A DNA stretch of 39,461 bases from Coriobacteriia bacterium (lineage in GTDB: Bacteria; Actinomycetota; Coriobacteriia; Anaerosomatales; SLCP01). The notes under the pieces were generated by a model. The model was not told the DNA's origin. It did no database searches and saw only the letters and a list, made by a program, of their open reading frames with translations. Made by a program: the position numbers and the translations under genes. Positions 21,856 through 38,356 of the stretch are shown one piece after another (the stretch's first letter is position 1; the number at the start of each line of letters is the position of its first letter). Location: positions 1 through 39,461 of the forward strand of contig SKKZ01000143.1 of assembly GCA_007123455.1 (NCBI GenBank). Direction: 5' to 3'.

Positions 21856-22761
21856 ATGAGCGCTCGCATCACAGGACGCACGCGTCTGGCGGGAATCATC
21901 GGTTGGCCGGTGGAGCAGAGCCTGTCACCCGTGATGCACAACGCCGCCTATCAGGCGATGGACCTCGATTGGGCCTACGTCCCGCTGCCCGTTGCCGATG
22001 AGACGGACCTGATCCGTGTCGTCGGGGCGATTCGTGTCCTGCCATTCGTCGGATTCAACGTGACCATGCCATACAAACAGGTGATGCTGGAGTTGTGCGA
22101 TGAAGCTGCAATGCTTGCCACCATGGCGGGCGCGGTGAACACCGTGCACTGCGTGGACGGGCGTCTGATCGGCTACAACACCGATGGCAGGGGTCTGGTC
22201 GATTCACTCGCGGCAGAGGTGGGCTACGAGCCGCAGGGCACGACGGTCGTGATTGTCGGAGCGGGAGGGGCCGCAGGTTCGGCCCTGGTCTCGCTCGTAC
22301 TCGGCAAGGCGGAGCGGGTAGTGCTGCTCAACCGGACGCGCGAGAACGCGGAGACGCTAGCCGGGCGCATCAGGCCCCATGCCCGGGAGACCGTCATCGA
22401 TGTGGCCACGCTAGGGGAGGACTCAGCAGAGGAAGTCCGGGAGGCCGACCTCGTCATCAACGCGACCCCCCTCGGGATGGGCCCGACAGACCAGTCCCCG
22501 GTGCCCGCAGAGTGGCTGGGCGCGGGACAGATCGTGGCCGACATGATCTATCGGGCTCAGCCGACGCCGCTCGTCAGAGCCGCTCGCTCCGCCGGAGCTA
22601 AGGCTGTCGACGGCCTCGGCATGTTGGTGGCGCAGGGGGCCATCGCGATGGAGATCTGGGGAGACGAGGAGTGCGGACGTGCCCCCCGTGACGTCATGCG
22701 TCAGGCAGCCGAAGATGCAATCTCGGCCCGTGCAGATGCAGAGCGTGGTGAGGACTCATGA
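21856..22761 (+). CDS. aroE: Shikimate dehydrogenase
   Basis: GIIGWPVEQSLSPVMHNAAY, FNVTMPYKQ, NTDGRG and the NADP-binding motif VGAGGAAGS. Confidence 0.93.
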   Translation: MSARITGRTRLAGIIGWPVEQSLSPVMHNAAYQAMDLDWAYVPLPVADETDLIRVVGAIRVLPFVGFNVTMPYKQVMLELCDEAAMLATMAGAVNTVHCVDGRLIGYNTDGRGLVDSLAAEVGYEPQGTTVVIVGAGGAAGSALVSLVLGKAERVVLLNRTRENAETLAGRIRPHARETVIDVATLGEDSAEEVREADLVINATPLGMGPTDQSPVPAEWLGAGQIVADMIYRAQPTPLVRAARSAGAKAVDGLGMLVAQGAIAMEIWGDEECGRAPRDVMRQAAEDAISARADAERGEDS

Positions 22762-24434
22762 GCGCCGCCGGCAGCCAGAGGCTCGGGCGCCTTCTCGTGG
22801 AGTCGGGCACCATCTCCCAGGAGCAGCTCTCCGCGGCACTTGAATCCGCATTCGGTGGCAAGAGCCTGATCGCTGCTCTCGATGATCTGGGATACGCCTC
22901 TGAAAACGTTGTCGCCCGGGCCGTTGCCGCGCAGATGGGGCTGGACTACATCGATCTTCCGGGATACGACATCGACCCTAATGCGGCGACGAATCTTTCC
23001 TCGGAACTCGCCAGACGGCATAGTGTGCTGCCGGTCAAGATCGAGGACGGCGAGTTGCTGGTTGCGATGTCGGACCCTGCGAACCTGATCGCCATCGACG
23101 ACCTCAGGATCGTCACCGGATATGAGATCCGTCCAGTGGTCGTCGCCGAGAGCGATCTCGCGCAGGCGATCGAGAAGTTCGTGGCCTCACACGCGAACGT
23201 TGACGACATGGTCGGCGATCTCGAGGACGCGGTGAGTACCGGGGATGAGAGCGCGGAAGATGACGTCGACGATGAGAGCGCACCGGTCGCCAAGCTCATG
23301 AACCTCGTCATCACGGAAGGCATCCGGCAGGGCGCCGGTGACATCTATATCGAACCGCACGAACACGAATTGAGGGTCCGCTTCCGCGTAGACGGCGTGT
23401 GTCAGGAGGTGTTCCGCAGCCCGAAGAAGATGCAGCGCCAGCTCATCAGTCGGCTGAAGATAGCTTCCGGCATGGATATCGCCGAGAAGCGCACACCCCA
23501 GGATGGTCGCTTCGGCGTGGTGCTCGACGGCAAGGCGGTGGACTTCCGCGTGGCGGTTCTCCCGCTCGTCCACGGTGAGCTCGCGGTCATGCGGCTTCTC
23601 CGCAAGGACTCGATCATGATGTCGCTGGAGGACCTCGGATTCCTCGAGCAGCCCATGCAGCGGCTGTTGGATGCGCTTGCGCTCCCGTACGGTGCGATCC
23701 TCGTCACCGGGCCGACGGGTTCAGGCAAGTCGACCACGCTCTATGCGGCCATCAACCGGACGAACGACGTCAGCACCAACTTGATTACTGTAGAAGACCC
23801 GGTAGAGTATCGCCTCAACGGACTGTCCCAAGTCCAGGTCCACGAGAAGGCCGGCCTGACGTTCGCCTCGGCGCTGCGCTCCATCCTGAGGCAGGATCCC
23901 GATACCGTGATGATCGGCGAGATCCGTGATGCGGAGACAGGTACGATCGCTATCGAGGCGGCCCTGACCGGCCACCTCGTGCTCTCGACACTCCATACGA
24001 ACGACGCTCCTTCGGCCGTCACGCGTCTGACCGAGATGGGTATCGAGCCCTTCCTCACCGCCTCCGCGATCACCTGTGTCCTGGCTCAGCGACTCGCGCG
24101 ACGTCTCTGTCCCGACTGCAAAGAGAAGTACGTTCCCGAGGAGGAGGCTTTGGCGCGCGTCGGTTTCCCGTTCGAGCCGGGCAGTCCGCCACATATCTTT
24201 CGGGCCAAGGGTTGCCGGAAGTGTAACGACATCGGTTACCGGGGCCGCATGGGCATACATGAGGTCCTGACGATGTCAGAGACGATCGAGCGCATGACCG
24301 TCGAGAACGCGTCGACTGACGAACTCATGGCGCAGGCTGTCGACGAAGGCATGAAGACGCTGAAAGACGATGGTTTCGAGAAGGTGCAGCTGGGACTCAC
24401 ATCGATCGAAGAGATTATGCGCGTAGTAGTCTGA
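22758..24434 (+). CDS. pilB: Type IV pilus assembly ATPase, PilB/GspE family, paralogue 1
   Basis: N-terminal T2SSE_N/MshEN-like domain (RLGRLLVESGTISQEQLSAAL), Walker A GPTGSGKSTT, Walker B DPDTVMIGEIRD, His box TGHLVLSTLHTN, and tetracysteine CPDC..CRKC. The ATG overlaps the aroE stop. Confidence 0.93.
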   Translation: MSAAGSQRLGRLLVESGTISQEQLSAALESAFGGKSLIAALDDLGYASENVVARAVAAQMGLDYIDLPGYDIDPNAATNLSSELARRHSVLPVKIEDGELLVAMSDPANLIAIDDLRIVTGYEIRPVVVAESDLAQAIEKFVASHANVDDMVGDLEDAVSTGDESAEDDVDDESAPVAKLMNLVITEGIRQGAGDIYIEPHEHELRVRFRVDGVCQEVFRSPKKMQRQLISRLKIASGMDIAEKRTPQDGRFGVVLDGKAVDFRVAVLPLVHGELAVMRLLRKDSIMMSLEDLGFLEQPMQRLLDALALPYGAILVTGPTGSGKSTTLYAAINRTNDVSTNLITVEDPVEYRLNGLSQVQVHEKAGLTFASALRSILRQDPDTVMIGEIRDAETGTIAIEAALTGHLVLSTLHTNDAPSAVTRLTEMGIEPFLTASAITCVLAQRLARRLCPDCKEKYVPEEEALARVGFPFEPGSPPHIFRAKGCRKCNDIGYRGRMGIHEVLTMSETIERMTVENASTDELMAQAVDEGMKTLKDDGFEKVQLGLTSIEEIMRVVV

Positions 24435-24578
24435 ACCGGCGTTTTCCCTGCATAGAGGGGTCTATCGGTTGTGAAGACTGGGGCTTCGTGAGAAACTGAG
24501 AAGAGGTAGCTGTACGTCGCCACGGCTCCTAGCGCGTGGCGTCATGCGTTCCGAGGGGTGAGGGAGGGGGCGTCGTCT

Positions 24579-25205
24579 GTGACAGACGAGGGGATCGACA
24601 GGTATTTGGTCGGCGACATCGATGACGAGGAGTTCGACGAGGCGGGTGAGACGGTCGTGCCGCCGGTCATCGTGTCCCCGACATCAACTCCTGACGACGG
24701 TGCACACTACGCTGACCGTGAGGTTACCGATGCGCGAGAACCTGACACGCTTGAAGCGACCATCGCGCCCGAGCAGCCACCCGACGAGGTAGCGCCATCC
24801 GTCGCCACCGAACACGCGGTATCGGACCGGGCGACCTCGAGCCGGGAGCGCCGCCTCGCAGAAGCACTCGAGGAACTGATGTCAGAGTCCAGCGACATCG
24901 AGGCCACCGCGCTCGTCAGCCTTGACGGTTTCATCATCGCCTCGGCGCTGCCCGATGGCATGCAGGAAGACCGTGTCGGCGCGATGTCTGCGGCGATACT
25001 CGCCCTCGGTGAGCGTGCGGCGGCCGAGCTCGGACGCGGACAACTGACGCAGGTGTTCATCGAGGGCGCCGACGGCTACGTGCTGCTGGTAGCTGCCGGA
25101 AACCGGGCGGTGCTCACCGTGCTCGCCGGTCGCCAGGCGAAACTCGGCCTGGTGCTCTACGACATGAGAGCCGCTGCCGATACCATTGGGGAGATACTTC
25201 GCTAG
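24579..25205 (+). CDS. Roadblock/LC7 (MglB/CvnB-like) domain protein with an acidic N-terminal extension
   Basis: The C-terminal approximately 110 aa, IEATALVSLDGFIIASALPDG..DRVGAMSAAILALGERAAAELGRGQL.QVFIEG.DGYVLLVAAG..AVLTVLA....LGLVLYDMR, is a typical Robl_LC7 pattern. The GTG at 24579 lies 8 nt after AGGGAGGGGG; the alternative is 24558. Confidence 0.85.
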   Translation: MTDEGIDRYLVGDIDDEEFDEAGETVVPPVIVSPTSTPDDGAHYADREVTDAREPDTLEATIAPEQPPDEVAPSVATEHAVSDRATSSRERRLAEALEELMSESSDIEATALVSLDGFIIASALPDGMQEDRVGAMSAAILALGERAAAELGRGQLTQVFIEGADGYVLLVAAGNRAVLTVLAGRQAKLGLVLYDMRAAADTIGEILR

Positions 25206-25253
25206 ACATCGAACGGCCACGGATCTTGGCCGAGAAGGGTGCCGACGAGTCGC

Positions 25254-27212
25254 ATGGCACTGAGAGGCGACCTCAAAGACTTCAGCCTGCCCGACGTCTT
25301 CCAGCTCATCACGTTGAGCCGGAAGACCGGCGTGCTGCGCATCAGAGGTGTCGCCGATGCGACAGGAAGCGTGTGGTTCCGCGACGGCGAGGTGTTCTTC
25401 GCGCAGTCCAACTGGCACCATGAGCCTCTCGGTGAGCGGCTCGTCACTGCCCGCAAGATCACACCGCACGCGCTCGAAAAGGCGCTGATGATACAGGCTG
25501 CCGAACCCGAGGGGGGACGCCGCCTAGGCCAGATCCTCGTGGATGAGGGCCACATCACGGAGAAGGTGCTCGAGGCGTTTGTTCAGGAGCAGATCCAGGA
25601 CACCATCTTCGACCTGATGCGCTGGGAAGCCGGCGAGTTCGACTTCGAGCTCCTGCCCGAGGTCGTCCATGAGGACATAGGGCTCACGGTCTCGATCGAG
25701 AACGTCATCATGGAAGGGAGCCGCCGGCTCGAAGAGTGGGCGCGCATCAGGAAGAAGGTCCCCTCGATGGACGTCGTCTTCAAGATGGCGACCGCTCCGG
25801 GTGAGGGTACGTTCGAGATCTCTCTGAAGCCTGTCGAATGGAGCCTGCTGCTGCTGGTGGACGGTACCCGCTCGGTGTCCGAGCTCGCACGTGCCGCCGG
25901 CCGGACCGACTTCGAGGTCGCACGCATCCTCTACGGTCTGTTCTCGGCGGGTCTGCTCGAGTTCGCGCCCGAGGATGAAGTCGAACGCCTGCATGCGCAG
26001 CGAACGGCCGAGCCCGAGGAGCCGGTCGTGGAGAGCGGGCGAGAGGTTGCATGGCATGACGAGGCCCTCGCGGAGCCTGAGCCCGGCGTTGCCTTAGACG
26101 TGGAAACGGAACCCGCTCCGGAACCAGAGCCGGAGACGTCCGCGCCTGAGTCCGAACCCGAACCCGTGCCGGAATCGGTGCCGCCGGTGGTCGTACGTCG
26201 AGAAGCGGAGCAACCACCACCCATAGTCACACGCCGCGAGCCCGAGATCCCCGAATTCCTCGCCGCGCCGCCCGCCGGAAGCGCGACTACCGGCGATGTC
26301 GCCTCGCTTGACGAGATGATGGATGCCGTGCTGGAGATGCCGCGTTCAAAGACCGAGCCTTCTGCACCCGAGCACCCGGCAATCGAGTCGTGGGATGAGG
26401 TCGAACGAGAGCTTCCGGCTGAGGTCGCTGATGTGCCGGATGCAGTTGAGGCCGAGCCGCCCGTGCCCGATTTCGAGCAAGATCTCAGGTCACTCGGTAT
26501 CGGCGAGCTGCCGGAACCGCCCGCGCCGGTCGAACCGCCGGAGCTATTCGCGCCCGAAGAGGTTTCGGAGTCGCTCGCTGACCAGACCGGTGGGTCCGAG
26601 GCTCCGGTGATCGAGCCGCCACCCGAGCCGGAGACACCACCCGAAGCCGGGCCAATGGTGCAGCCTGACGGTGTACCCGAGATCGAACCCACTATCGAGC
26701 CAGAGCCGGAGCCAGAGCCGGAGCCGATGGTAGAGCCTGAACCGGAATCACAGGTCGTGCCCGAGATCGAGATCGTGCCGGAGCCCGAACGCGTCCTGGA
26801 GGCCGAACCGGAGAGCGTCCTCGAGGCCGAACCGGAGAGCGTCCTCGAGGCTGAACCCGAGTTCGGACTCGAGTCCGAGACCGTTGGAACACCCACGGAG
26901 AAGGCCGATCAAGGCCTCGGTGGCCTCGAAGCCGACCTGAGCGATCTGCTCGAGTCGCTCGATGAACCGGAACTCGAGGAACCTTCCGCAGCTATCGTTG
27001 AGCCGGAAGAGATCGCGCCCGAGGAGGCGGGAGCCGACTTCTCGAGCGAGATGAGTGACGAGATCGGTGCGTTGACCGGGGCGCGAAAAGCGCGACCGCA
27101 AGTGAATGTGAGTGACATTCCCGATAAGGGAGGGAGCCCGGGGCTTCGGATGGACCGGGCGGTCGACAAGAACCTCGTACTGAAGATAATCGACGGGCTC
27201 AAGAAGCTGTGA
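25254..27212 (+). CDS. DUF4388 (PATAN-type) domain protein with MshEN-like motifs, a DUF742-like wHTH segment and a long Pro/Glu-rich tail
   Basis: The N-terminus LRGDLKDFSLPDVFQLITLSRKTGVLRI...GSVWFRDGEVFFA is the DUF4388 signature. RLGQILVDEGHITEKVLEAFVQEQ is followed by IFDLMRWEAGEFDFE. VEWSLLLLVDGTRSVSELARAAGRTDFEVARILYGLFSAGLLEF is wHTH-like. From about 26010 the sequence is low-complexity, rich in E and P. The alternative start is GTG 25239. Confidence 0.85.
   Translation: MALRGDLKDFSLPDVFQLITLSRKTGVLRIRGVADATGSVWFRDGEVFFAQSNWHHEPLGERLVTARKITPHALEKALMIQAAEPEGGRRLGQILVDEGHITEKVLEAFVQEQIQDTIFDLMRWEAGEFDFELLPEVVHEDIGLTVSIENVIMEGSRRLEEWARIRKKVPSMDVVFKMATAPGEGTFEISLKPVEWSLLLLVDGTRSVSELARAAGRTDFEVARILYGLFSAGLLEFAPEDEVERLHAQRTAEPEEPVVESGREVAWHDEALAEPEPGVALDVETEPAPEPEPETSAPESEPEPVPESVPPVVVRREAEQPPPIVTRREPEIPEFLAAPPAGSATTGDVASLDEMMDAVLEMPRSKTEPSAPEHPAIESWDEVERELPAEVADVPDAVEAEPPVPDFEQDLRSLGIGELPEPPAPVEPPELFAPEEVSESLADQTGGSEAPVIEPPPEPETPPEAGPMVQPDGVPEIEPTIEPEPEPEPEPMVEPEPESQVVPEIEIVPEPERVLEAEPESVLEAEPESVLEAEPEFGLESETVGTPTEKADQGLGGLEADLSDLLESLDEPELEEPSAAIVEPEEIAPEEAGADFSSEMSDEIGALTGARKARPQVNVSDIPDKGGSPGLRMDRAVDKNLVLKIIDGLKKL
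26781..26870 (+). repeat. In-frame 24-bp tandem repeat (GAGGCCGAACCGGAGAGCGTCCTC, encoding EAEPESVL) inside the Pro/Glu-rich tail
   Basis: Two identical units at 26799-26822 and 26823-26846 are flanked by a shortened unit (26781-26798, EPERVL) and a diverged unit (26847-26870, EAEPEFGL). A GAGCC(A/G) (PE)n run lies at about 26698-26730. Confidence 0.8.
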
Positions 27213-27231
27213 CGGAGAACAGGACAGCCGG

Positions 27232-27756
27232 ATGCAGTCTGTGAAAGTAGTGGTCACCGGACCATTCAACGCCGGCAAGACGACGTTCATCAAGTCGGTA
27301 AGTGAGATCACGGTGCTCTCGACCGAACGTGAGGTGAGCGACTCCTCTGCCGAGGGCGGCGGGGAGACCACCGTTGCCATGGACTTCGGCCGTATCACGA
27401 TCTCCGATGACGTGGTCCTCTACATCTTCGGCACACCCGGGCAGGAGCGCTTCTCCTTCATGTGGGAGACACTTTCCGAGGGCATGCTCGGGTTCGTCGT
27501 ACTCGTCGACGCATCGGACGGGACATCCGTCGCCGACGCCACCTCGATCATCAGCTTCTTCCGCAACATGTCATCGGTCCCCTTTGTTGTGGCGGCTAAC
27601 AAAGTCGGCGACGACCCGGCCGATCTCGAGTCCCTCCGGGAGAGATTGGGTATCGAGGGCTCGGTCGAGATACTTGCCGTCGACGCGCGCGACCGGGATT
27701 CGGTGAAACGGGTCTTGCTTGCGTTGCTCTACCGTATCCTGGAGAGCATGGAGTAG
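27232..27756 (+). CDS. Small Ras-like GTPase (MglA/CvnD-like, COG2229-type ATP/GTP-binding protein)
   Basis: P-loop VVTGPFNAGKTTF, switch region TTVAMDFG, G3 FGTPGQERF and G4-like AANKVGDD. It is 174 aa and sits in an operon with the Roadblock protein. Confidence 0.9.
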   Translation: MQSVKVVVTGPFNAGKTTFIKSVSEITVLSTEREVSDSSAEGGGETTVAMDFGRITISDDVVLYIFGTPGQERFSFMWETLSEGMLGFVVLVDASDGTSVADATSIISFFRNMSSVPFVVAANKVGDDPADLESLRERLGIEGSVEILAVDARDRDSVKRVLLALLYRILESME

Positions 27757-27759
27757 ACG

Positions 27760-28215
27760 GTGAACCTTGAGGCCTACGCACCGGCTGTCTCGCTTCTGCT
27801 GCTCGGCGTGATGGCCATCATCGCGTTTGTCCGGGTTCGCTCGCTCATCAAGCGTCACGGCATTGAGGGGCGTGTTCCTACTCAGCAGCCTGTGGCACAC
27901 GCAGAGCCTCCTGCGCCCTGGTGGGCTTCGCATCTCGATGACTACACGAGGGAGTCGTCACCCAAGGCCGCGGTGTCCGAGGAGCGCGTGAGGGCTGAGG
28001 AGCCCCCGACACCGGAGGAGCCTCATGGATCCGCGGAGCTCGAGGAGCACGATGTCACTCCGGACACCGGCGAATACGTGATGCTTGCACAGGTAGAGCT
28101 ATGGTTCGGTGATTATCGGGTGGCGGTGCGTTCGGGCTCGGATACGGACCGCCGATTCCGCCGATTCGCGGAGGTGCTCCTCGAAGATCTTGGCTCCACA
28201 CGCGTGCGGGAGTGA
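27760..28215 (+). CDS. Small single-pass membrane protein of unknown function
   Basis: The GTG lies 3 nt after the GTPase stop. There is an N-terminal TM segment (PAVSLLLLGVMAIIAFV), then a charged linker and a short C-terminal segment. No recognisable family. Confidence 0.6.
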   Translation: MNLEAYAPAVSLLLLGVMAIIAFVRVRSLIKRHGIEGRVPTQQPVAHAEPPAPWWASHLDDYTRESSPKAAVSEERVRAEEPPTPEEPHGSAELEEHDVTPDTGEYVMLAQVELWFGDYRVAVRSGSDTDRRFRRFAEVLLEDLGSTRVRE

Positions 28216-28311: not shown

Positions 28312-29982
28312 GTGACAGATACGGGACAGCGGCTCGGCCAGCTCCTCATGCGGTCGGGAATCATCACCGAGCGTCAGCTTGCCGATGCCCTCGAGGTCCA
28401 CAAAGCGACAGGGGAGCGCCTCGGTCGCATCATCGTAGACCTCGGCCACGCCACGCAGGGAGAGATCCTCTCGGTGATGGCGACCCAGATCGGTATCGAG
28501 TACTTCGACTTCAGCATCGTTCAGCCCGACCCCAATGCGGTAGCTGCGGTGCCGCGAGAGCTCGCAGAACGATACACGTTGATGCCGGTCTCGCTCTCGG
28601 ACGGTGTGCTGGTCGTGGCCATGGCCGACCCGCAGAACGTGCTCGCACTCGATGACTTGAGAATCATCACGGGTCACGAGATACGCGCCGGCATCTCCAC
28701 GCGGGATGACATCGCCGGTAGCATCGAGGCATTCTACAAAGTCGCCGAGCACACCGAGTCTGACGACTTCATCGGCTCCGACGACCTCAGTGAGACCGAA
28801 CTGGAGAGCCTGAGCGGTGTCGCGGCCGACGCACCGATCGTCAAGCTGGTGAACTACATCATCACCAAAGCGGTCAGCGAGCGAGCGAGCGACATCCATA
28901 TCGAGCCGCAAGACAGCGACCTCAGGGTCCGTTTTCGCGTCGACGGTGTCCTCCATGAGGTGATGAGGAGCCCCCGCTCCGTGCAGGCCGCCATCATCAG
29001 CCGTTTCAAGATCATGGCTGAGATGGATATCGCCGAGACCCGTAAGCCGCAAGATGGTCACTGCGCCATCACTGTTTCGGGACACACGATCGACTTCCGC
29101 GTCTCGTCGCTGCCCACCGTCTATGGTGAGCGCATCGTGCTGCGTATCCTGCGCAAAGATGCGATCCTGCTCGAACTGAGCGACCTCGGCTTCCTCCCGT
29201 CCTCGCTCGAGCGCTTCGAGTCTTCGTTCCGCAAGCCATACGGTGCGATCCTGGTCACCGGGCCGACCGGCTCGGGCAAATCGACCTCGCTCTACGCCGC
29301 GATCAACGTGCTCAACTCGCCTGACAAGCATATCCTCACCGCGGAAGACCCGGTCGAGTACCGGGTTCCCGGCGTCAATCAGTGCCAGATCAATGTGAAG
29401 TCAGGCCTGACCTTCGCCCGTGCACTCCGCTCCTTCCTGCGCTGCTCGCCCGATATCATCCTTGTCGGTGAGATCCGCGACCAGGAGACGGCGCGCATCG
29501 GCATCGAGTCGGCGCTCACCGGCCATCTCGTGCTCTCGACGCTGCACACCAACGACTCGGCGGGTGCCGTGACGCGCCTGGTCGAAATGGGTGTGGAGCC
29601 CTTCCTCGTCGCCTCGGCCGTCGACTGCATCCTTGCGCAGCGCCTCGCTCGCCGTTTGTGCCCCTCGTGCAAGGAGGAATACGAGCCGAAACCACAAACG
29701 CTTATAGACGCCGGCTTCCCTGCCGATAATCTGCCTGAGAGGATCTTCAAGGCAGTCGGCTGCAAGAAGTGCGGCGGTACCGGATATCGAGGGCGCATGG
29801 GCGTCCACGAGGTACTCCTCGTGTCGGAGGAGATCGGTCGGCTCACCGTCGCCGGGGCCACGTCGGAGGAGATCAAGAAGGCCGCCATCGCTGACGGCAT
29901 GCTCACCCTCAAAGAGGATGGGCTCGAGAAGGTCAGGATGGGGGACACATCGGTCGAGGAGATCCTGCGCGTGATCGTGTAG
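28312..29982 (+). CDS. pilB: Type IV pilus assembly ATPase, PilB/GspE family, paralogue 2 (well-preserved tandem MshEN motifs)
   Basis: The N-terminus has RLGQLLMRSGIITERQLADALEVH, a 5-aa spacer, then RLGRIIVDLGHATQGEILSVMATQ. It also has Walker A GPTGSGKSTS, Walker B SPDIILVGEIRD, TGHLVLSTLHTN, and CPSC..CKKC. Confidence 0.93.
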   Translation: MTDTGQRLGQLLMRSGIITERQLADALEVHKATGERLGRIIVDLGHATQGEILSVMATQIGIEYFDFSIVQPDPNAVAAVPRELAERYTLMPVSLSDGVLVVAMADPQNVLALDDLRIITGHEIRAGISTRDDIAGSIEAFYKVAEHTESDDFIGSDDLSETELESLSGVAADAPIVKLVNYIITKAVSERASDIHIEPQDSDLRVRFRVDGVLHEVMRSPRSVQAAIISRFKIMAEMDIAETRKPQDGHCAITVSGHTIDFRVSSLPTVYGERIVLRILRKDAILLELSDLGFLPSSLERFESSFRKPYGAILVTGPTGSGKSTSLYAAINVLNSPDKHILTAEDPVEYRVPGVNQCQINVKSGLTFARALRSFLRCSPDIILVGEIRDQETARIGIESALTGHLVLSTLHTNDSAGAVTRLVEMGVEPFLVASAVDCILAQRLARRLCPSCKEEYEPKPQTLIDAGFPADNLPERIFKAVGCKKCGGTGYRGRMGVHEVLLVSEEIGRLTVAGATSEEIKKAAIADGMLTLKEDGLEKVRMGDTSVEEILRVIV

Positions 29983-30049
29983 GCGCTCCCAGGACCGACA
30001 GGAGCGCCGCTCGCAAGAGCGGGACACGCGGAAACGAGGAGTGCGACCG

Positions 30050-31261
30050 ATGGCTGTCTACAACTACTCCGTGCGCGACCGGTCCGGCAAGATCGTCAAG
30101 GGATCCCTGGAAGGGGACAACCGGGAGGCGGTCAGCGGCAAGCTGAGGGAGATGGGCTATATCATCCTTCAGCTCGACCAGCAGTCGCAGCTCGCCGCCA
30201 TGGGCCAGATAAAGTTCGGGACCGGCGTCAAAGTCAAGGACGTCGCTATCTTCGCGCGGCAGTTCGCCACCATGATCAACGCGGGACTCTCGCTCACCAA
30301 GTGCCTGAGCATCCTTGCCGAGCAGACCGAGAGTTCGGGTCTCAAGGAAGTCATCCAGCAGGTCGCGAACGACGTCGAGTCAGGTCAGTCGCTTTCCGAC
30401 TCGCTCTCCAAGCACCCCAAGGTCTTCCCGCCGATCTTCGTCAACATGGTCAGAGCGGGCGAGACCGGCGGTGTGCTCGACGAGGTGCTCGTTCGCGTCG
30501 CCGATCACTTCGAGGCCGAACTCGCGCTCAAAGGCAAGATCAAGTCCGCGATGACGTATCCCGTGGCCATGGGCGCACTCGTGCTCATGATCCTCGCGGC
30601 GATGATGATCTTCGTGGTTCCGGTCTTCGAGGAGATGTTCGCCTCGATGGGTGGCGAGCTGCCATTCATCACACAGCTGTTGGTCGACATTTCTAGCTTC
30701 GTGTCAGGTGTCGGTGGGTTGCTCGTGTTGGTCGGTGCTGTGGGTATCGTGTTTGGATTCCGCTTCTGGACCAGCACAAGCAGTGGCAGGCTGATCTGGG
30801 ATGCAACGAAGCTGCGGATGCCGATCTTCGGCGGTATGATCCGCAAGATTGCGCTCGCTAAGTTCACTAGGACGTTCGGCACGCTTGTCTCTGCCGGTGT
30901 GCCCATCCTTGGGGCACTCGACATCGTCGCTGACACGTCGGGCAACGAGGTGGTCGCCCAGGCGGTCAAGAAGACGCGCTCCGCCATCAAGGAAGGCGAA
31001 ACCATTGCCAAGCCGCTCTCCGAGTCCAGGGTGTTCCCGTCGATGCTCGTCCAGATGATTGCGGTGGGCGAGGAGACTGGCGCACTCGACGCCATGCTCA
31101 ACAAGATTGCGGACTTCTACGATGAAGAGGTGGCGAACGCCGTGGACGGCCTCACGTCGCTCATCGAGCCGCTCATGATGGCGACTCTCGGGCTGATCGT
31201 CGGCGCCATGGTCATCGCGCTCTACATGCCGATGTTCCAGATCATCACGCTGATAGATTAG
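30050..31261 (+). CDS. pilC: Type IV pilus platform protein PilC (GspF/T2SS-F family)
   Basis: Duplicated T2SSF architecture with three TM regions, FARQFATMINAGLSL, and MVRAGETGG / MIAVGEETG motifs. The ATG at 30050 lies 9 nt after GAGGA. Confidence 0.93.
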   Translation: MAVYNYSVRDRSGKIVKGSLEGDNREAVSGKLREMGYIILQLDQQSQLAAMGQIKFGTGVKVKDVAIFARQFATMINAGLSLTKCLSILAEQTESSGLKEVIQQVANDVESGQSLSDSLSKHPKVFPPIFVNMVRAGETGGVLDEVLVRVADHFEAELALKGKIKSAMTYPVAMGALVLMILAAMMIFVVPVFEEMFASMGGELPFITQLLVDISSFVSGVGGLLVLVGAVGIVFGFRFWTSTSSGRLIWDATKLRMPIFGGMIRKIALAKFTRTFGTLVSAGVPILGALDIVADTSGNEVVAQAVKKTRSAIKEGETIAKPLSESRVFPSMLVQMIAVGEETGALDAMLNKIADFYDEEVANAVDGLTSLIEPLMMATLGLIVGAMVIALYMPMFQIITLID

Positions 31262-31391
31262 GTGCGCACCTTCCATCCAAGAATACCTCTAAAGTCCGGC
31301 ATCTCCTTGCCCGATAACAGGTGTAAGCAAGAGAGTGGTCGCCATGAGGGAGGCCACCGGTAGTCCCGAAAGGGAGAAGGAGGTGCGGAAC

Positions 31392-31757
31392 ATGTTCAGG
31401 ATGTTCCGGAAGAGTGATGAGGGCTTCACCCTCGTCGAGTTGATGGTCGTTGTTCTCATTATCGGTATCCTTGTCGCAATCGCCATTCCCGTCTTCAACG
31501 CAGCTCGTGCCAACGCCCAGCAGCGCTCCTGCCAGGCGAACCTGCGCACCATGGACGGCGCCATCGAGCAGTGGCGTGCCGAGGACGTGGACAACGATCC
31601 TGCCGACTGGGGCGGGGTTTTCGCCACGGCGATGGGCGCTGGCGGTCTCGCCGATTACATCCAGGAGACGCCGACTTGCCCCGGTGGTGGAACCTACAGC
31701 GTGAGCAACTCGACCGATGCGAGGTTCGCCTGCGACGTCGCGGGTCACGCATACTAA
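31392..31757 (+). CDS. pilA: Major type IV pilin (prepilin with class III signal peptide)
   Basis: MFRMFRKSDEG|FTLVELMVVVLIIGILVAIAIPVF, with Glu at +5. The C-terminal PTCPGGGTYSV motif is common in Gram-positive-type pilins. The ATG lies 9 nt after GAAGGAGG. It is followed by the strongest terminator in the window, typical of a highly expressed structural gene. Confidence 0.9.
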   Translation: MFRMFRKSDEGFTLVELMVVVLIIGILVAIAIPVFNAARANAQQRSCQANLRTMDGAIEQWRAEDVDNDPADWGGVFATAMGAGGLADYIQETPTCPGGGTYSVSNSTDARFACDVAGHAY

Positions 31758-31780
31758 GTCATCTCACTCAGTAACGTGAC

Positions 31781-31820
31781 CGAAGGGCCGGCAGCGCGAG
31801 CTGCCGGCCCTTCTCGCTTT
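31781..31820 (+). terminator. Rho-independent terminator after the pilin gene
   Basis: Perfect 14-bp stem GAAGGGCCGGCAGC / GCTGCCGGCCCTTC with a GCGA loop, followed by TCGCTTTCC. Confidence 0.85.
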
Positions 31821-31880
31821 CCCGGAGACACGCACTCTCCGCTCCGCTAGACTCATCGCATCACTTCCGGGAGGAGGCGC

Positions 31881-32699
31881 ATGACCACCGAACTTGCGCT
31901 TGTCGCTATCGCGTTCTTCGTGTTCGGCCTGCTGCTCGGCAGTTTCGGCAACGTAGTGATCTGGCGCTTCCCCCGGGGCGAATCGCTGAGCTCGCCCGGT
32001 TCGCGCTGTCCTGCGTGCGACGCACCCGTTCGGTGGTACGACAACATCCCGGTCGTCTCGTGGCTCCTGCTGCGGGCCCGGTGCCGTTCGTGCGGCGAGC
32101 CGATCGCGACCCGCTATCCCGCAGTCGAGCTGTTGTCAGGACTCCTCTGGCTCGCTGCCGGCCTCACGTTCGGCCTGGGCGGCCAGGCTGTCATAGCCGG
32201 GTTCTTCTTCTGGACTCTTCTCATCCTGACCTTCATCGATCTCGATACCATGCGCCTTCCAAACCCGATCGTCGGGGCACTCGCCCTGCTCGGTTTCGCT
32301 GGCGCCACCGTGTCACAGGTCACTTCGGTCGACTGGGTTCCTCTGACAGGCGGCGATGCCTCACCGCTCCTTGGGGCGGTGTTCGGCGCACTGCTTGGTG
32401 CCGGCATCAGCGGTGGCATCGCAGCACTCTACGCAGGCGTGCGCGGCAGATCCGGTTTCGGGATGGGGGACGTCAAGCTCCTCGGCGCGATGGGCTTCTT
32501 CCTTGGTCCGTACGTCCTGCTGTCGCTCTTCATCGGAAGCTTGTTCGGCGCCGTGGTCGGTATCGTGACCGCGGCGCGCTCGGAGAACGGCCTTGCGACG
32601 AAGATCCCGTTTGGCCCGTTTCTCGCCCTCGGCGGCATCTTAGCGGCTCTCGTCGGGCCCGAGATCGTGCGTATGTACCTTGCCCTGGTCACGGGCTGA
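31881..32699 (+). CDS. pilD: Prepilin peptidase (A24 family) PilD
   Basis: N-terminal Cys motif CPACDAPVRWYDNIPVVSWLLLRARCRSCGEPI, and catalytic Asp regions GMGDVKLLG and IPFGPFLALG. Confidence 0.93.
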   Translation: MTTELALVAIAFFVFGLLLGSFGNVVIWRFPRGESLSSPGSRCPACDAPVRWYDNIPVVSWLLLRARCRSCGEPIATRYPAVELLSGLLWLAAGLTFGLGGQAVIAGFFFWTLLILTFIDLDTMRLPNPIVGALALLGFAGATVSQVTSVDWVPLTGGDASPLLGAVFGALLGAGISGGIAALYAGVRGRSGFGMGDVKLLGAMGFFLGPYVLLSLFIGSLFGAVVGIVTAARSENGLATKIPFGPFLALGGILAALVGPEIVRMYLALVTG

Positions 32700-32791: not shown

Positions 32792-34315
32792 GTGGTGAGG
32801 GTGCAGAGGGGCGGTACGTCGCATAGCGTGCGTGATGAGGGCATGACGATCATCGAGGTCGTTGTGGGCATCACAATCTTCTTCTTCGTGCTGACGGCTA
32901 TCTTCGGCCTGCTCGGGGCGACTACGAGCATGGCCGTCTTCTCCAACGAACGCGCCCTGCTCGTGAACGCCATGAACTCCTATATCGAAGAGGCCCGCGC
33001 GATGCCGTATCTCGCCGTGGGTGTCGACGCCACCGGCGCTGAAGTCTTCGGTGACCTTCCCGAGGAAACCTCGCAGTCCATCGGCGGCTATACCGTGATC
33101 ATCAGGCCTACGGTCGAGTGGGTGGATGATCCGTTCATAGAACCGGGTACGGAAGACTACAAGCAGCTGACCGTAGACGGAATCATCATGCGGGGAGGCG
33201 AGGTCGTCTATACGCTCTCCATGTCGACTTTCATCCGACAGGAGGCCCCCGCGGGTGATTTCACGCCGCCGAGCATCGAGTTCGGGCCGAACTCACCTCC
33301 CGAGGCGAGTCCCCCGACGGTCGTGCGTGGTGAGAGCGTGCTGATCGAGGCTATCGCCCAGGCGACGATGCCCGGGGCGCGCCTCGTGAGCATGTCGTTC
33401 GTCATCAGCCCGGGGGGCACGTTCCTCCAGGGCTCCGCGCCCGGAAGCGTGGCGCTCTGGGAACTCGACACACAGAGTCTCACCAAGCAATTCTACTGGA
33501 ACACCCTTGCGGTCGATGAGTTCAACGAGCGCATCGTCCAGGATGGCGAGTACACGATCACCATCGAAGTCGTGGACAGCAACCAGAAACGCGTGCACCG
33601 GACACGGCGGGTACTCATCGACAACGACCCGCCGGACATCCCTACGGACCTCGTCGCGCATGCACTCCTGAGTGGCACGCAGGTGCCGCTGACGTGGACG
33701 AGGTCGATGGACGGCTGGACCGAGACCGACCACTACGCCCTGCTTGTCGCACGGCAGTCCGAGGTGGGGACGTGGACCTCGGAAGTGTTGCTGACCGAAG
33801 GGCCAGCGGGCTCCTACACCTTGAGCACGATCCCGTTCAGTCGCTACAACGTGCGTGTCGCCGGAGAGAGTCCGGAGGGGCTGCGCTCCGGGTGGGCGCC
33901 GCTTATCGAAGAAGGTGAGGACCCGGTTATCTTCGAGACCAGGCCGCTCATCAACGGGACGTATAGGGCTGTCTACTCGAACAACAATCCGCGTGGCTGG
34001 CAGGTGAGCGTGAACCTCTCCACCTCGCAGCCGACCTTTCCCGTGGAGTCGGTGCGCTACGAACTCTACGAGCGCACCCCCTCCGGTGAGTGGACGCTTG
34101 TGAGCAGCGATCTCAACACCACTGGTATGTTCACACACAACTACCTGGTAGAGGGTAACAAGAACCAGGCGATCGACCGCTACTACATGGTGCGTGCCTA
34201 CTGGACGCGCAATGCGGCCTCACCCGAACTCATGACGGAGTCGAACACCCTCGGGCCTACCTCGACCGCCGGTGAGCCGAACGTGATCACCTTCCCAACG
34301 CCGGGAGCGTGGTGA
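32792..34315 (+). CDS. Large minor-pilin-like protein (prepilin-type N-terminus plus Ig-like and fibronectin-III-like modules)
   Basis: Leader ..SVRDEG|MTIIEVVVGITIFFFVLTAIFGLL with Glu at +5. Later come an Ig-like segment (..YTITIEVVDSNQKRVHRTRRVLIDNDPP) and an FN3-like segment (PTDLVAHALLSGTQVPLTWTRS...YNVRVAGESPEG). The exact start is uncertain (GTG at 32792, 32795 or 32801). Confidence 0.8.
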   Translation: MVRVQRGGTSHSVRDEGMTIIEVVVGITIFFFVLTAIFGLLGATTSMAVFSNERALLVNAMNSYIEEARAMPYLAVGVDATGAEVFGDLPEETSQSIGGYTVIIRPTVEWVDDPFIEPGTEDYKQLTVDGIIMRGGEVVYTLSMSTFIRQEAPAGDFTPPSIEFGPNSPPEASPPTVVRGESVLIEAIAQATMPGARLVSMSFVISPGGTFLQGSAPGSVALWELDTQSLTKQFYWNTLAVDEFNERIVQDGEYTITIEVVDSNQKRVHRTRRVLIDNDPPDIPTDLVAHALLSGTQVPLTWTRSMDGWTETDHYALLVARQSEVGTWTSEVLLTEGPAGSYTLSTIPFSRYNVRVAGESPEGLRSGWAPLIEEGEDPVIFETRPLINGTYRAVYSNNNPRGWQVSVNLSTSQPTFPVESVRYELYERTPSGEWTLVSSDLNTTGMFTHNYLVEGNKNQAIDRYYMVRAYWTRNAASPELMTESNTLGPTSTAGEPNVITFPTPGAW

Positions 34316-34316
34316 G

Positions 34317-34886
34317 ATGACACGGATGCGGGACGACAGGGGATTCACCCTCTCAGAGCTGGTCGTGGTGCTCGCACTGCTCGTCGTCGTCATCGGTGTG
34401 GTCTATGGCTCGGCGCACGCCATGATGCAGGCGGCACGTGTGAGCGATCGGCAGTCACGCTTCACTCAAGAAGTGGCGTCGCCGCTGCTCGTCATCGACA
34501 GAATCCTGGTCCAGAATTCCAGCATCCAGGATGCGACGCCATACCGCATCGTGGTGCTCACCGACCGGGATCTCAACAACAAGATGGAGCGTACGACGAT
34601 TCAGGCGCGTACCGATGGCACGCTACATTACCGGTCCGAGGAGCTCAATCCGGCACGGACTGCCGTCGAGCGAGTCCTGCAGGACTGGGTGATCTCCGAT
34701 AACAACGTGAACGTCGCGCAAGGAGAGCCGCTCTTTCGATATTACGACGTTGAGCTGGAGGAGATCACCGCGATGGGAAGCGTCAGTTCGGATGCACGCT
34801 CGATTCTCGTGAACCTTGTCACCGAACACGACGGCCGTACCCTTTCTGACTCGCGGCGGATCCAGTTCCGCCTGCGGCAGTGGTAG
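34317..34886 (+). CDS. Minor pilin / pseudopilin with prepilin-type N-terminal cleavage/methylation motif
   Basis: MTRMRDDRG|FTLSELVVVLALLVVVIGVVYG. It starts 1 nt after the upstream stop. Confidence 0.85.
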   Translation: MTRMRDDRGFTLSELVVVLALLVVVIGVVYGSAHAMMQAARVSDRQSRFTQEVASPLLVIDRILVQNSSIQDATPYRIVVLTDRDLNNKMERTTIQARTDGTLHYRSEELNPARTAVERVLQDWVISDNNVNVAQGEPLFRYYDVELEEITAMGSVSSDARSILVNLVTEHDGRTLSDSRRIQFRLRQW

Positions 34887-34898
34887 GAGCTGGTGAAG

Positions 34899-36422
34899 AT
34901 GCGCATGCCGCACGGACTTCTCTGCAGGGACGATGGCGTCGTACTGCCGCTCGTCATGGGGATAATCTCCGTTCTCACTGTGATTTCCGTAGCGAGTTTC
35001 GCGCTCGCGAGCAACGCGCTTCACGAGACGACACGCACGCAGGGCGAAACCGTTGCATTTCAGATCGCGAACGCCGGAGTAGATGCAGCGCTCGAGCAGG
35101 TGTACCGCAGCGGTTTCGTCGAGGACAACTTCCCGGCGTCCGCTGACTTGTCAGGCGGTACGTACGTGGTCGAAGTCGAGCGCCTGGACAACTCCGAATT
35201 CCAGCTTACGTCCGTTGGTACCGATGCAACCGGTTTCACCGAGACGGTGGTTGTGCGCTTCTTCTACATCAACCTCTGGGAGATGGTCTTCGCCGCCGGT
35301 ACCCAGGAGTCCCTGACGGCCGGTGGTGGAGGGATCACGGGCAACAGCAACGTCACGGGGCCCTTCTACGTTCGCGGGACGGTGAACACCAACGGCGCGG
35401 CGTACATCCATAACGGACCGTGGTTCGTTGACGGTAACGTAAGCGCAGGCGGCAACACGGAGATCGGTTCGACCACCAACCCGATTCAGGTGTATGTTTC
35501 CGGCTCATACAATCTGACGGGAAATGCTACAGACTATCTGCGGAACTTCTCAGTCGCCGTGCCCAAGCTCGAACTCCCGAGGTTGGGCGCTGACGAGCTT
35601 CTCATCGCAGCCGGGAAGGCCCAGGCTGAGTCGATCGACAACCTTATCGGTACCCCCGAATGGTCAGCAGGACCGAACTATGAGGCCGAGGAGGGCGTTC
35701 AGGATCCGCTCGCGTACGACACCATCGACCCGCCGAACACCGCCGGGTTCACCCGTGAGTATGCGCGCAAGGACGACGTCGAACTGCATCGCTTCGGCTA
35801 CAAGTACATCGGGGAGAGCTCGAGTCCCTCGGAACCGCGTCAGGGATCAAGCTCGCTTGTCATCGGGCCCTGGAGCTTCGGAGCATGGCCGGGCAATGGC
35901 TATCCGGTCGACAGCACAAGCAACGACGACTTCGCTTATGACGCTGCGACGAGGACTCTCTACGTCGAAGGTACCGTCTTCGTCGATGGCCCTGTGACGT
36001 TCACGGAGCACATTCGCTACAGGGGCAGAGGGACGATCGTCGCAAACGGAGACGTGCTCATACAAGGCGCGCTGCATCCGGACAACACCGGAGCTACCGA
36101 GGCAGAGAGGCGCAAGATGGGACCGCGCCACGTTCTCGGAATCGCGACACCCGGGAACATCACCGTACAAGGTCCGACCGGGAACGTGCCCAAGCCCGAG
36201 CCTACAGACCCTCCGTATCACTCGCTCGCTATGTATGCTGCCGAGACGATCGCGTTCACGACGAACAACTACTACGTAGGATCGATCGTGGCAGGCCAGA
36301 TCAACATGGGCAACAACAACGTCCACCTCGTGACCGACCCGGATCTGCCGGAGTTCCTTCCCGACAGCCTTCCGGGTCGTGATACGCCGATACTCACGAA
36401 AGGTGCGTGGGCGCGCCAATGA
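34899..36422 (+). CDS. Large PilX-N-like pilus-associated protein with a Gly/Asn-rich beta-helix-like region (candidate tip or adhesin component)
   Basis: Non-canonical hydrophobic N-terminus DDGVVLPLVMGIISVLTVISVASFALASNAL, as in PilX_N-type proteins. It also has GGGGITGNSNVTGPFYVRGTVNTNGAAYIHNGPWFVDGNVSAGGNTEIG. The ATG at 34899 lies 9 nt after AGGAG; the alternative is GTG 34893. Confidence 0.78.
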   Translation: MRMPHGLLCRDDGVVLPLVMGIISVLTVISVASFALASNALHETTRTQGETVAFQIANAGVDAALEQVYRSGFVEDNFPASADLSGGTYVVEVERLDNSEFQLTSVGTDATGFTETVVVRFFYINLWEMVFAAGTQESLTAGGGGITGNSNVTGPFYVRGTVNTNGAAYIHNGPWFVDGNVSAGGNTEIGSTTNPIQVYVSGSYNLTGNATDYLRNFSVAVPKLELPRLGADELLIAAGKAQAESIDNLIGTPEWSAGPNYEAEEGVQDPLAYDTIDPPNTAGFTREYARKDDVELHRFGYKYIGESSSPSEPRQGSSSLVIGPWSFGAWPGNGYPVDSTSNDDFAYDAATRTLYVEGTVFVDGPVTFTEHIRYRGRGTIVANGDVLIQGALHPDNTGATEAERRKMGPRHVLGIATPGNITVQGPTGNVPKPEPTDPPYHSLAMYAAETIAFTTNNYYVGSIVAGQINMGNNNVHLVTDPDLPEFLPDSLPGRDTPILTKGAWARQ

Positions 36423-36581: not shown

Positions 36582-37715
36582 GTGGGCCTCATATCGATGG
36601 GCTCGGGTGCGCCACCGGTGGGTCTCGACATCGGGACCGATCACGTGCGCGCCGCGGTGCTCAAGGCATCCTCTTCGGCTCCCACGCTCGCGGCGTACGG
36701 ACGTGTAGACATGCCGATGGGTGCGGTCGTCGACGGGGAGATCGTCGATCCGGCCGCCGTGTCATCGGCGATCCGGGAACTCTGGCGCCAGCCCGGCATC
36801 AAGGGCCGTGAAGTCCTCACCGGTGTCTCAAACCAGAAGGTAGTCGTCCGCCTCATCGATCTGCCGTTCATGGAGCGCGATGAGTTGCAGGGTGCCATCC
36901 AGTACCAGGCGCAAGACTATATCCCGATACCGGTCGAAGACGCGATCCTCGATTTCCAGATCATCGGCGACTACATGACGCCGGGCGACGAGCACATGAT
37001 GGAGGTGCTCCTCGTCGCCGCTCAGCGCGACACCATCGAGGCAACCGTATCCGCTGTCGAAGGCGCGGGTCTCCGACTCTCGGGCATAGATGTCACGTCG
37101 TTCGCGATCGTGCGCTCGACGCTCGGGAGCGGCCTGAGTGTTCTCGCCGAGGAAGAAGAGGGCCCGGGCGAGGCGGTCGCGGTCATTCACATCGGCTCTG
37201 GTCTCACAAACATCGCCGTGGTCGAGAAGGGCGTTCCCCGGTTCACCCGGGCTTCGTCGCTTTCGGGAAACCAGTTCACCCAGGCCGTGGCAAACGTTCT
37301 GAACCTCACGTTCGACGATGCCGAGCGTCTGAAGATACGAGCCGGACTGCCGGACATCAGCGCCCAAACGCACGCCCAGCCTGATGCTGACGATGCCGAT
37401 GCCCGGATGGTGCAGACGGCGCAGGACGCGCTCGAGCGCGAAGTGAACAAGTTCATCGCTGAGGTGCGTCGCTCGCTCGACTACTACCTGACGCAGACGA
37501 CCCAGGCGCGGACGATTCGTAGAATCCATCTCACCGGCAGCAGTGCTCAGCTCGCTCACATGAACACGTATCTCGAGAAGGGTCTGCAGGCCGAGGTGGT
37601 ACTGAGCGATCCGCTGCGCTTCGTCCAGGTCGGCTCCTCGGCACGGATGGCGGCCGAAGACGACCGCATGGGCGCGGCACCGGCTATCGGCCTGGCACTG
37701 GGGGGTGTGATGTAG
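36582..37715 (+). CDS. pilM: Type IV pilus assembly protein PilM (actin-like ATPase fold)
   Basis: VGLDIGTDHVRAAVL (phosphate-1-like), IDLPFM..EL..AI..QA.DYIP, IHIGSGLTNIAVVEKG and HLTGSSAQL. Confidence 0.92.
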   Translation: MGLISMGSGAPPVGLDIGTDHVRAAVLKASSSAPTLAAYGRVDMPMGAVVDGEIVDPAAVSSAIRELWRQPGIKGREVLTGVSNQKVVVRLIDLPFMERDELQGAIQYQAQDYIPIPVEDAILDFQIIGDYMTPGDEHMMEVLLVAAQRDTIEATVSAVEGAGLRLSGIDVTSFAIVRSTLGSGLSVLAEEEEGPGEAVAVIHIGSGLTNIAVVEKGVPRFTRASSLSGNQFTQAVANVLNLTFDDAERLKIRAGLPDISAQTHAQPDADDADARMVQTAQDALEREVNKFIAEVRRSLDYYLTQTTQARTIRRIHLTGSSAQLAHMNTYLEKGLQAEVVLSDPLRFVQVGSSARMAAEDDRMGAAPAIGLALGGVM

Positions 37716-38339: not shown

Positions 38340-38356
38340 AGAACGGACGGAGAGAC

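Follow-up and report, generated by a model that had tools for sequence, protein, structure and literature searches.

A conservon-like small-GTPase cassette lies between two PilB paralogues in the type IV pilus operon of an Anaerosomatales bacterium

Conservon-type G-protein systems are abundant in Actinomycetota, and few of their direct targets are known. For the conservon GTPase MfpB, the DUF742 protein MfpC is an exchange factor for guanine nucleotides (GEF) and the Roadblock protein MfpD is a GTPase-activating protein (GAP); MfpB and MfpC regulate mfpA translationally (PMC11343762). Within the MglA family of small GTPases, group 1 (MglA and SofG proper) is marked by TVPGQ and an intrinsic arginine, groups 2-5 are defined by GTPGQ and TT, and of these, groups 2 and 3 have DAR (PMC4316618). 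Genes for PATAN (DUF4388) proteins have been noted beside MglB/MglA homologues (Makarova et al., 2006; Wuichet and Sogaard-Andersen, 2014; PMC4316618). In Synechocystis, PATAN binds the pilus proteins PilB1 and PilC, and some DUF4388 proteins have been annotated with a GspE_N domain (bioRxiv 10.1101/2021.06.11.447907). A tandem 24-residue motif, MshEN, binds cyclic di-GMP (c-di-GMP) (Wang et al., 2016; PMC5013675). Here, we analyzed 39,461 nt of DNA from a Coriobacteriia bacterium (Anaerosomatales; SLCP01; GCA_007123455.1, contig SKKZ01000143.1), which we call the window, in which a four-gene cassette lies between two genes for PilB-type extension ATPases of the type IV pilus (T4P), pilB1 and pilB2. 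On balance, we lean toward the view that this cassette is a G-protein switch, conservon-like but without a kinase, through which c-di-GMP is coupled to the pilus motor.

The four genes run in the same direction on the + strand and encode a Roadblock/LC7 protein of the MglB/CvnB type (24579-25205), a 652-aa DUF4388 protein that we refer to as the scaffold (25254-27212), a 174-aa small GTPase (27232-27756), and a 151-aa membrane-anchored protein (27760-28215). Gaps of 48, 19, 3, and 96 nt separate successive genes from the Roadblock gene to pilB2. In the list of open reading frames (ORFs), these lengths and gaps, together with the GTPase motifs GPFNAGKT and FGTPGQERF, were as given in a preliminary description of the sequence, and Pfam confirmed the three families that it had named (Robl_LC7, E 1.9e-18, aa 101-190; DUF4388, E 2.7e-33; and, for the P-loop GTPase, ATP_bind_1, 1.2e-18, Ras, 1.1e-5, and Arf, 2.4e-5). 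On either side of the cassette, pilB1 (22758-24434) and pilB2 (28312-29982), both on the + strand, encode proteins that match T2SSE (E 2.4e-134 and 2.3e-136, respectively) plus MshEN. No intrinsic terminators were detected in the gaps from pilB1 to pilC. GC content by codon position was coding-like in all parts, including an N-terminal extension of the Roadblock protein and a Pro/Glu-rich linker in the scaffold.

We determined how widely this arrangement is conserved. Species-representative genomes were scanned with the first 250 aa of the scaffold, which yielded 198 relatives, of which the closest 80 (73-91% identity) were kept; counts over related loci refer to these, and distant lineages outside them were sampled individually. 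Nearly all of these best 80 are metagenome-assembled genomes labelled Coriobacteriia, Anaerosomatales, or Actinomycetota. Searches with the window proteins (tblastn) revealed the order mltG...aroE-pilB1-Roadblock-PATAN-GTPase-...-pilB2-(pilT)-pilC-pilA-pilD wherever the contig was long enough. Co-occurrence of the cassette with duplicated pilB, which the preliminary description had raised, was borne out: strict pilB-Roadblock-PATAN-GTPase-pilB order was present in 35 of the 38 loci that had sufficient flanking DNA (species-level, Coriobacteriia, Anaerosomatales-type), and of the three that deviate, at least two seem to reflect pilB2 matches that were split and not true differences. Thus, in this lineage the cassette is a stable component of the pilus operon and not a chance juxtaposition. 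With variations, the cassette order also recurs in other Actinomycetota.

The scaffold is a member of the DUF4388 family (PF14332, 115 bits against a cut-off of 25), with 160 of its residues aligned to a 122-position profile, approximately 40 extra. In an AlphaFold model of aa 1-249 (pLDDT 88, pTM 0.77), the protein has three parts: a beta-rich PATAN core, a four-helix insertion (59-122, with helices at 59-65, 71-83, 91-97, and 103-122), and a winged helix (193-237). The insertion carries tandem 24-residue MshE-type motifs, predicted to bind c-di-GMP, at aa 58-113 (25425-25592). It passes the MshE-type NCBIfam model NF053729 with 46.4 bits against a cut-off of 38, covering the entire profile (1-53/53), and its two halves, separated by 8 aa, match 9/11 and 10/11 positions of the relaxed tandem motif (Wang et al., 2016). 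Of the homologues scored with NF053729, P0065, P0113, and P0076 pass and P0081 and P0063 fall just below the cut-off, and the MshEN insert is absent from Thermus/Deinococcus DUF4388 relatives. The presence of this motif suggests that the scaffold insert senses c-di-GMP.

The first 250 aa of the scaffold form one conserved module that is 40-90% identical in many phyla and belongs to a large family (3,657 clusters at 50% identity at E<=1e-30; 32,409 at E<=1e-3). The C-termini of the proteins that contain it vary, consisting of disordered tails, TPR repeats, or nothing. In the scaffold, the C-terminal part comprises the winged helix, a disordered linker, and a short helix, and Pfam detected no Response_reg match that would indicate a PatA-type REC domain. 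When overlong PATAN-module proteins (0.9-1.5 kb) were scanned for fusions, DUF4388 was the sole domain found.

The motif in the scaffold also distinguishes the two PilBs, which are 53% identical. MshEN motif 1 is retained in both. Motif 2 begins with [RP][LI]G in all 55 PilB2 orthologues, while the motif 2 of PilB1 lacks the [RKPN]hG start in 71 of 71 orthologues. Scored by NF053729, PilB2 passes with 57.3 bits and PilB1 fails with 32.3 bits. Therefore, the cassette separates a PilB with a complete predicted c-di-GMP site from a PilB with a half-site, and carries a third complete predicted site of its own.

The preliminary description had likened the central segment of the scaffold to the winged helix-turn-helix (wHTH) of DUF742. 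The wHTH part of this claim stood. Residues 189-243 (25818-25982), which occupy the position of CvnC/DUF742, form helices at 193-199, 208-215, and 219-231 and a strand at 235-237 in the AlphaFold model, generic wHTH families (HVO_A0114, TrmB, MarR) match weakly, and local Foldseek matches are to wHTH structures. The DUF742 part was not established, as the native scaffold had no match to DUF742 (PF05331) at E<=0.1. When the wHTH was artificially spliced to the C-terminal tail, DUF742 ranked first among the families but stayed below threshold (19.4 bits, E 1e-3; cut-off, 27 bits), and such splices of four homologues gave lower DUF742 scores or none. Using hhalign, six DUF742 proteins compared with the scaffold family aligned the wHTH to DUF742 aa 45-99 (E 2-3e-3, probability 10-13%), and the reverse hidden Markov model (HMM) search found one of the six DUF742 proteins (E 0.5). 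The evidence toward DUF742 is weak, and all of it points in the same direction. As the wHTH subdomain, including its putative recognition helix (DFEVARILYGLFSAG), is acidic or hydrophobic with few basic residues, DNA binding by this region is unlikely.

Between the wHTH and the C-terminus is a low-complexity linker rich in Pro and Glu (25983-27137), which matches no Pfam family. It varies several-fold in length between species, being longer than 1000 aa in some family members, and the total length of the scaffold ranges from 292 to 854 aa among relatives. The linker contains tandem repeats (GAGCCG x5 at 26697-26726; a 24-nt unit x3.8 at 26791-26883, coding ESVLEAEP). The protein ends in a helix with the motif RDxxVDKxLVLKIIDGLKKL (27138-27212), which closes the protein exactly in 60+ loci and is also conserved in Actinomycetota further afield. 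This helix resembles the ends of DUF742 proteins (PDxxLLEAVxxGLxKL) and of Thermus DUF4388 proteins; in Thermus/Deinococcus, DUF4388 proteins end in GLLQRVLRAL-like helices. Although the sample is small, the C-terminal helix was present in all sampled groups in which the scaffold neighbors a GTPGQ-type GTPase or pseudo-GTPase, and was missing from a stand-alone Che-type module with no such GTPase neighbor. Because of this co-occurrence, we infer that the helix is a handle for a GTPase-fold protein.

The motifs of the GTPase (G1 GPFNAGKT, G2 TT, G3 GTPGQ, G4 NKVGD, G5 DAR) are conserved across the lineage, with 29 residues from G1 to G2. It belongs to the MglA family by its Ras-superfamily fold, by a G3 that is missing the conserved Asp, by an insertion from G1 to G2, and by the adjacent Roadblock gene. 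It is not a group-1 MglA, as it has E-T-T and GTPGQ and no intrinsic arginine finger. Sequence and profile searches of the PDB returned Arl8/Rab/Ras, not MglA, with profile matches to Arl/Rab/Ras at 1e-11. When plasmids were searched with tblastn, matches were found in 156 records, mostly from Streptomyces, and six of them sit in textbook conservons (kinase, roadblock, DUF742, ATP/GTP-binding protein). A joint alignment supported the earlier description of the GTPase as CvnD-like: it is 44-47% identical over its full length to CvnD of six genuine CvnA-B-C-D operons, with TT, GTPGQxRF, and DAR in common, 38-39% identical to the GTPases of Thermus/Deinococcus megaplasmid triads, and 19% identical to a group-1 MglA (from locus L084). 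CvnD-type (group 2) GTPases are recognized by GTPGQ, TT, a G4 of the form NxFD without Lys, and DAR at G5. The window GTPase keeps the G4 Lys that CvnD has lost, has no G4 Phe, and is missing the 8-aa G1-G2 insert of CvnD. Judged by these motifs and identities, it would be a close sister of CvnD more than a plain member of the CvnD group.

Two genes upstream, and thus within the four genes of a small GTPase that are expected of such partners, is the Roadblock gene, whose product matches Robl_LC7 with 66.4 bits against a cut-off of 23 (profile 2-91/91). The Asp-Gly pair typical of MglBs that are coupled to group 2-5 MglA is present, as LVSLDGFIIA aligns with the DG of CvnB and of Thermus/Deinococcus Roadblocks, and the protein shares 25-32% identity with CvnB and 34-37% with PATAN-linked Roadblocks of Deinococcota. 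The start given for the gene in the preliminary description, at 24579, is a GTG preceded by a Shine-Dalgarno-like GAGGGAGGGGG, in an ORF that is open from 24558; for the scaffold, the ORF is open from 25239 and the ATG at 25254 gives 652 aa. At its N-terminus, the Roadblock protein carries an acidic extension of approximately 95-100 aa (24558-24857; 140 aa in L101). We considered whether this extension is an annotation artifact and rejected this possibility, since the next in-frame start after 24672 (ATG 24879) cuts the domain and GC content is coding-like. The order of the three genes matches a CvnB/C/D-like trio, as had been proposed, and a Pfam scan of the pil locus of the window, from aroE to pilO, found no histidine kinase. 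The tblastn survey of the 80 related loci used window genes only as queries, and kinases lay outside its reach.

Loci of other Actinomycetota revealed that the Roadblock gene and the catalytic residues of the GTPase are lost together. In five of these loci (L082, L086, L087, L099, and L100), the order is aroE-pilB1-PATAN-X-pilB2, with no Roadblock gene. The X protein is clearly homologous to the GTPase (42-51% identity in the three that were aligned), but Thr stands in place of the P-loop Lys (AGTTT), and GTPGQ has become GTPGE, GTPGD, or GIPAP (5/5 Roadblock-less loci). In all loci that have a Roadblock gene, GxxxxGKT and GTPGQ are kept; these include L101 and L085, in the latter of which the cassette lies upstream of both pilBs instead of between them. 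The X proteins are therefore likely to be pseudo-GTPases retained for a structural role, as a GTPase-fold protein still lies between both pilBs. Such joint loss would be expected if the Roadblock functions in the cycle of the GTPase and if the GTPase-fold protein has an added structural role. Together with its family, the joint loss points to the Roadblock protein as the GAP-type partner of the GTPase.

More distant relatives of the scaffold occur in Che clusters. A stand-alone module that is 54% identical adjoins a PilB-like ATPase within a Che operon, and in another Che cluster (L084), a PATAN-TPR relative accompanies two Roadblocks and a group-1 MglA. The latter cluster (L084 10001-17065) contains two PATAN-TPR proteins, a TPR-Roadblock fusion, a Roadblock, the group-1 MglA, and a DnaA/IstB-like AAA protein.

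The fourth gene is real, and its architecture is conserved. In 47 of 52 loci, an ORF encoding an N-terminal transmembrane helix starts 0-14 nt past the GTPase stop codon. As described previously, the 151-aa protein of the window has a single hydrophobic helix, which is N-terminal, and no recognizable family; Pfam and NCBIfam gave no match. The helix is followed by basic residues and then by a linker of 50-450 residues, and by the positive-inside rule the C-terminus should be cytoplasmic. Although total length ranges from 125 to 533 aa (677 aa in L101), the proteins of most loci share a conserved C-terminal end of approximately 45 aa, APVELWFGDxRVGVRxGTxTxxxFQRxAxVLLxDL (28072-28212 in the window).

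A model that accommodates these observations is that the scaffold docks on the PilB/PilC motor via its PATAN domain, as would be expected by homology to Synechocystis, and reads c-di-GMP through the MshE-type four-helix insert. Its wHTH and tethered C-terminal helix would engage the CvnD-like GTPase as CvnC/MfpC does; we propose this engagement because the genes are in the same order, the profiles are weakly similar, and the C-terminal motif is shared. The Roadblock would switch the GTPase off, and the fourth protein may tether its small cytoplasmic domain at the membrane beside the machine. The output would be when pili are assembled and/or which ATPase, PilB1 or PilB2, drives assembly.

Several observations weigh against this model. 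Motif 1 of the insert deviates at the turn glycine, which is R/K in the window, and its spacer is 8 rather than 5 residues. When the whole model of the PATAN module was compared with the PDB by Foldseek, no structure matched at E<=1e-3; the search returned local wHTH matches only, with no solved relative of the PATAN core, and did not recover MshE. No diguanylate cyclase or phosphodiesterase is encoded in the window. The relationship to DUF742 is below every curated threshold, and the scaffold is not a PF05331 member. The AlphaFold model of the GTPase, made from a shallow alignment, is poor (pLDDT 65, with the N-terminal 50 residues below 50); for this reason, Foldseek confirms only a generic Ras-like fold, in which MglA and Rab/Arf are not separable. 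Lastly, the five pseudo-GTPase loci may stem from one or two loss events and are then not five independent observations.

Other explanations must be considered. A small GTPase and a Roadblock beside T4P genes are the hallmark of the MglA/MglB paradigm, and the cassette could be a polarity module of this kind that, as in Myxococcus, sorts the PilBs to a cell pole and sets where pili form, rather than when they form or by which motor. The PATAN-TPR relative encoded with a true group-1 MglA and two Roadblocks fits this idea. However, the window GTPase lacks the group-1 hallmarks, with TT instead of the Arg finger, GTPGQ instead of TVPGQ, and only 19% identity. Further, cultured Anaerosomatales are non-motile with pili over the whole surface, and one strain is piliated only on ferrihydrite (PMC9686372). 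As pili that cover the whole surface and depend on ferrihydrite indicate conditional rather than polar control, we regard a polarity module as quite unlikely. We find it similarly improbable that the cassette is a conservon-type unit that acts on gene expression, be it transcription or translation and be it of the pil operon or of other, unrelated genes, rather than on the motor, either because the wHTH binds DNA or because the GTPase acts on translation like MfpB. The wHTH fold is real, DNA binding was predicted for PatA by Makarova et al., and control of mfpA by MfpB/MfpC is a precedent at the level of translation (PMC11343762). Yet the acidic and hydrophobic character of the recognition helix and of the subdomain argues against DNA binding, DUF742 itself is a GEF and not a DNA binder (PMC11343762), PATAN regulators bind PilB/PilC directly (bioRxiv 10.1101/2021.06.11.447907), and the pseudo-GTPase is kept between both pilBs despite the loss of its catalytic residues.

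It is also conceivable, and in our estimation very unlikely, that pilB1 and the cassette serve a separate pilus-like or secretion function, such as competence or another filament, and share only a chromosomal site with pilB2-pilC-pilA. That the PilBs are just 53% identical and differ in the c-di-GMP motif would agree with separate functions, as would the position of the cassette before both pilBs in L085. Against this, the window contains a single pilC, a single pilD, and a single pilM/N/O set, and in none of the loci examined does pilB1 come with a second platform gene.

A more specific version of the model of a switch that couples c-di-GMP to the motor is that the scaffold is a c-di-GMP-gated exchange factor that loads the CvnD-like GTPase at the membrane, and that the GTPase then selects between a c-di-GMP-blind PilB1 and a c-di-GMP-binding PilB2 on one platform. 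We put this version forward tentatively, as a rather unlikely one. If true, it would be the first actinobacterial G-protein system with a defined molecular machine as its direct effector, and the first meeting of GTP/GDP and c-di-GMP logics on one scaffold.

The building blocks of this picture are already published, and so are two of the links between them, namely the neighborhoods of PATAN with MglA/MglB (2006, 2014) and the link between PATAN and PilB (2020-22). The earlier statement that no system of this architecture has been described thus requires qualification: novelty does not extend to these links, while the full architecture was not found described in the literature searched. The same holds for the placement between two differentiated PilBs, the c-di-GMP motif in a PATAN insert, the kinase-less conservon-like order, and the membrane tether. 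The MshE-type motif of the insert, the motif contrast between PilB1 and PilB2, the conserved helix that closes the scaffold, the conserved domain at the C-terminal end of the membrane protein, and the pseudo-GTPase lineages all go beyond the preliminary description. Since the cassette lies inside the operon of a well-understood machine, the effector of a conservon-type system is here directly testable. With the motif contrast present in all 71 PilB1 and 55 PilB2 proteins, the locus is a natural experiment on why two PilB extension ATPases are kept. Our analysis also suggests that the long-known helical insertions found in many PATAN domains are c-di-GMP receptors of the MshE type. This would add a large set of candidate receptors, given the 3,657 clusters that match the module at E<=1e-30.

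The remainder of the window (GC ~63%, with nearly all genes on the + strand) provides the setting of the cassette. Its housekeeping genes are, in order, hisS, aspS, rarA, alaS, ruvX, mltG, and aroE, an order typical of Actinomycetota. Anaerosomatales (OPB41) are widespread in subsurface environments. The T4P locus begins directly 3' of aroE and continues with pilB1, the four cassette genes, pilB2, pilC, pilA, pilD, pilin-like genes, and pilM/N/O. The pilC, pilA, and pilD genes (30041-32699, + strand; T2SSF, N_methyl, and Peptidase_A24) belong to the same apparent operon, and a Pfam scan placed pilM/N/O at 36582-38956. The window has no pilT-type retraction ATPase gene (28312-31261). Many relatives (e.g., L086, L087, L099, and L101) have a T2SSE gene of 354-378 aa between pilB2 and pilC, and in many related loci the pilB2-pilC spacing is ~2.8 kb. 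Between pilD and pilM, two ORFs of ~507 aa that match no Pfam family (32792-34315 and 34893-36422) flank a minor-pilin-like gene (34317-34886) and may encode lineage-specific pilus-tip or assembly proteins. Elsewhere in the window, a 1214-aa ORF (2-3646, + strand) combines a RecJ exonuclease (DHH, DHHA1, RecJ_OB) with HIRAN and a DEAD/Helicase_C helicase in an unusual single-chain nuclease-helicase, and genes for a HATPase_c_2 anti-sigma-type kinase and a SigB/F-like sigma factor (12355-13534) lie upstream of an AI-2E transporter gene and alaS.

Of the described systems, conservons (CvnA-B-C-D; MfpE-D-C-B) share with the cassette the succession of a Roadblock, a wHTH middle protein with a C-terminal LLxxVxxGLxxL helix, and a GTPase with GTPGQ, TT, and DAR. 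They differ in that all six reference conservons have a sensor kinase, CvnA, whereas the pil locus of the window yielded none, and in that their middle protein is a DUF742 protein of 100-120 aa, in contrast to a 652-aa PATAN-MshEN scaffold that is sub-threshold for DUF742. Unlike CvnD, the window GTPase keeps NK in G4 and is missing the 8-aa G1-G2 insert, and unlike conservons, the unit lies in a T4P operon with an extra membrane-tethered protein. The PATAN regulators of the cyanobacterial T4P motor, PixG, PixE, PilG, and TaxP1 (Han et al.; Jakob et al.), likewise have a helical insertion in their PATAN/DUF4388 domain and are linked genetically to PilB. Compared to these, the window scaffold has no REC domain or Che-type input, is partnered by a small GTPase and a Roadblock, and carries a full MshE-type motif in its insert.

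MglA/MglB of Myxococcus (and SofG) and of Thermus resemble the cassette in having a Ras-superfamily GTPase without the G3 Asp that is coupled to a Roadblock and linked to PilB. In contrast to them, the window GTPase has no intrinsic arginine finger and has GTPGQ instead of TVPGQ, and neither RomR nor RomX was seen in the window. The MshEN receptors of MshE/PilB (PMC5013675) have the same tandem 24-residue motif, RLGxxhhxxGhhxxxxLxxxLxxQ, in a four-helix unit that passes NF053729; there, the unit is the N-terminus of an ATPase, whereas in the window it is an insertion in a PATAN domain, with an 8-aa spacer and R/K at the turn glycine of motif 1. Finally, the Thermus/Deinococcus megaplasmid triads (L094, L095, L096), which by their taxa are probably group-5 MglA systems, have the same three families adjacent to each other, a wHTH-like region, and a C-terminal LLxRxLxxL helix. 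Their order is PATAN-GTPase-Roadblock, they lack both the MshEN insert and the long linker, and pil genes are not found nearby. They adjoin genes for protoglobin and for EAL and HD-GYP proteins of c-di-GMP turnover, a neighborhood that speaks for a link to c-di-GMP. For study of such a triad, T. thermophilus would be a tractable host.

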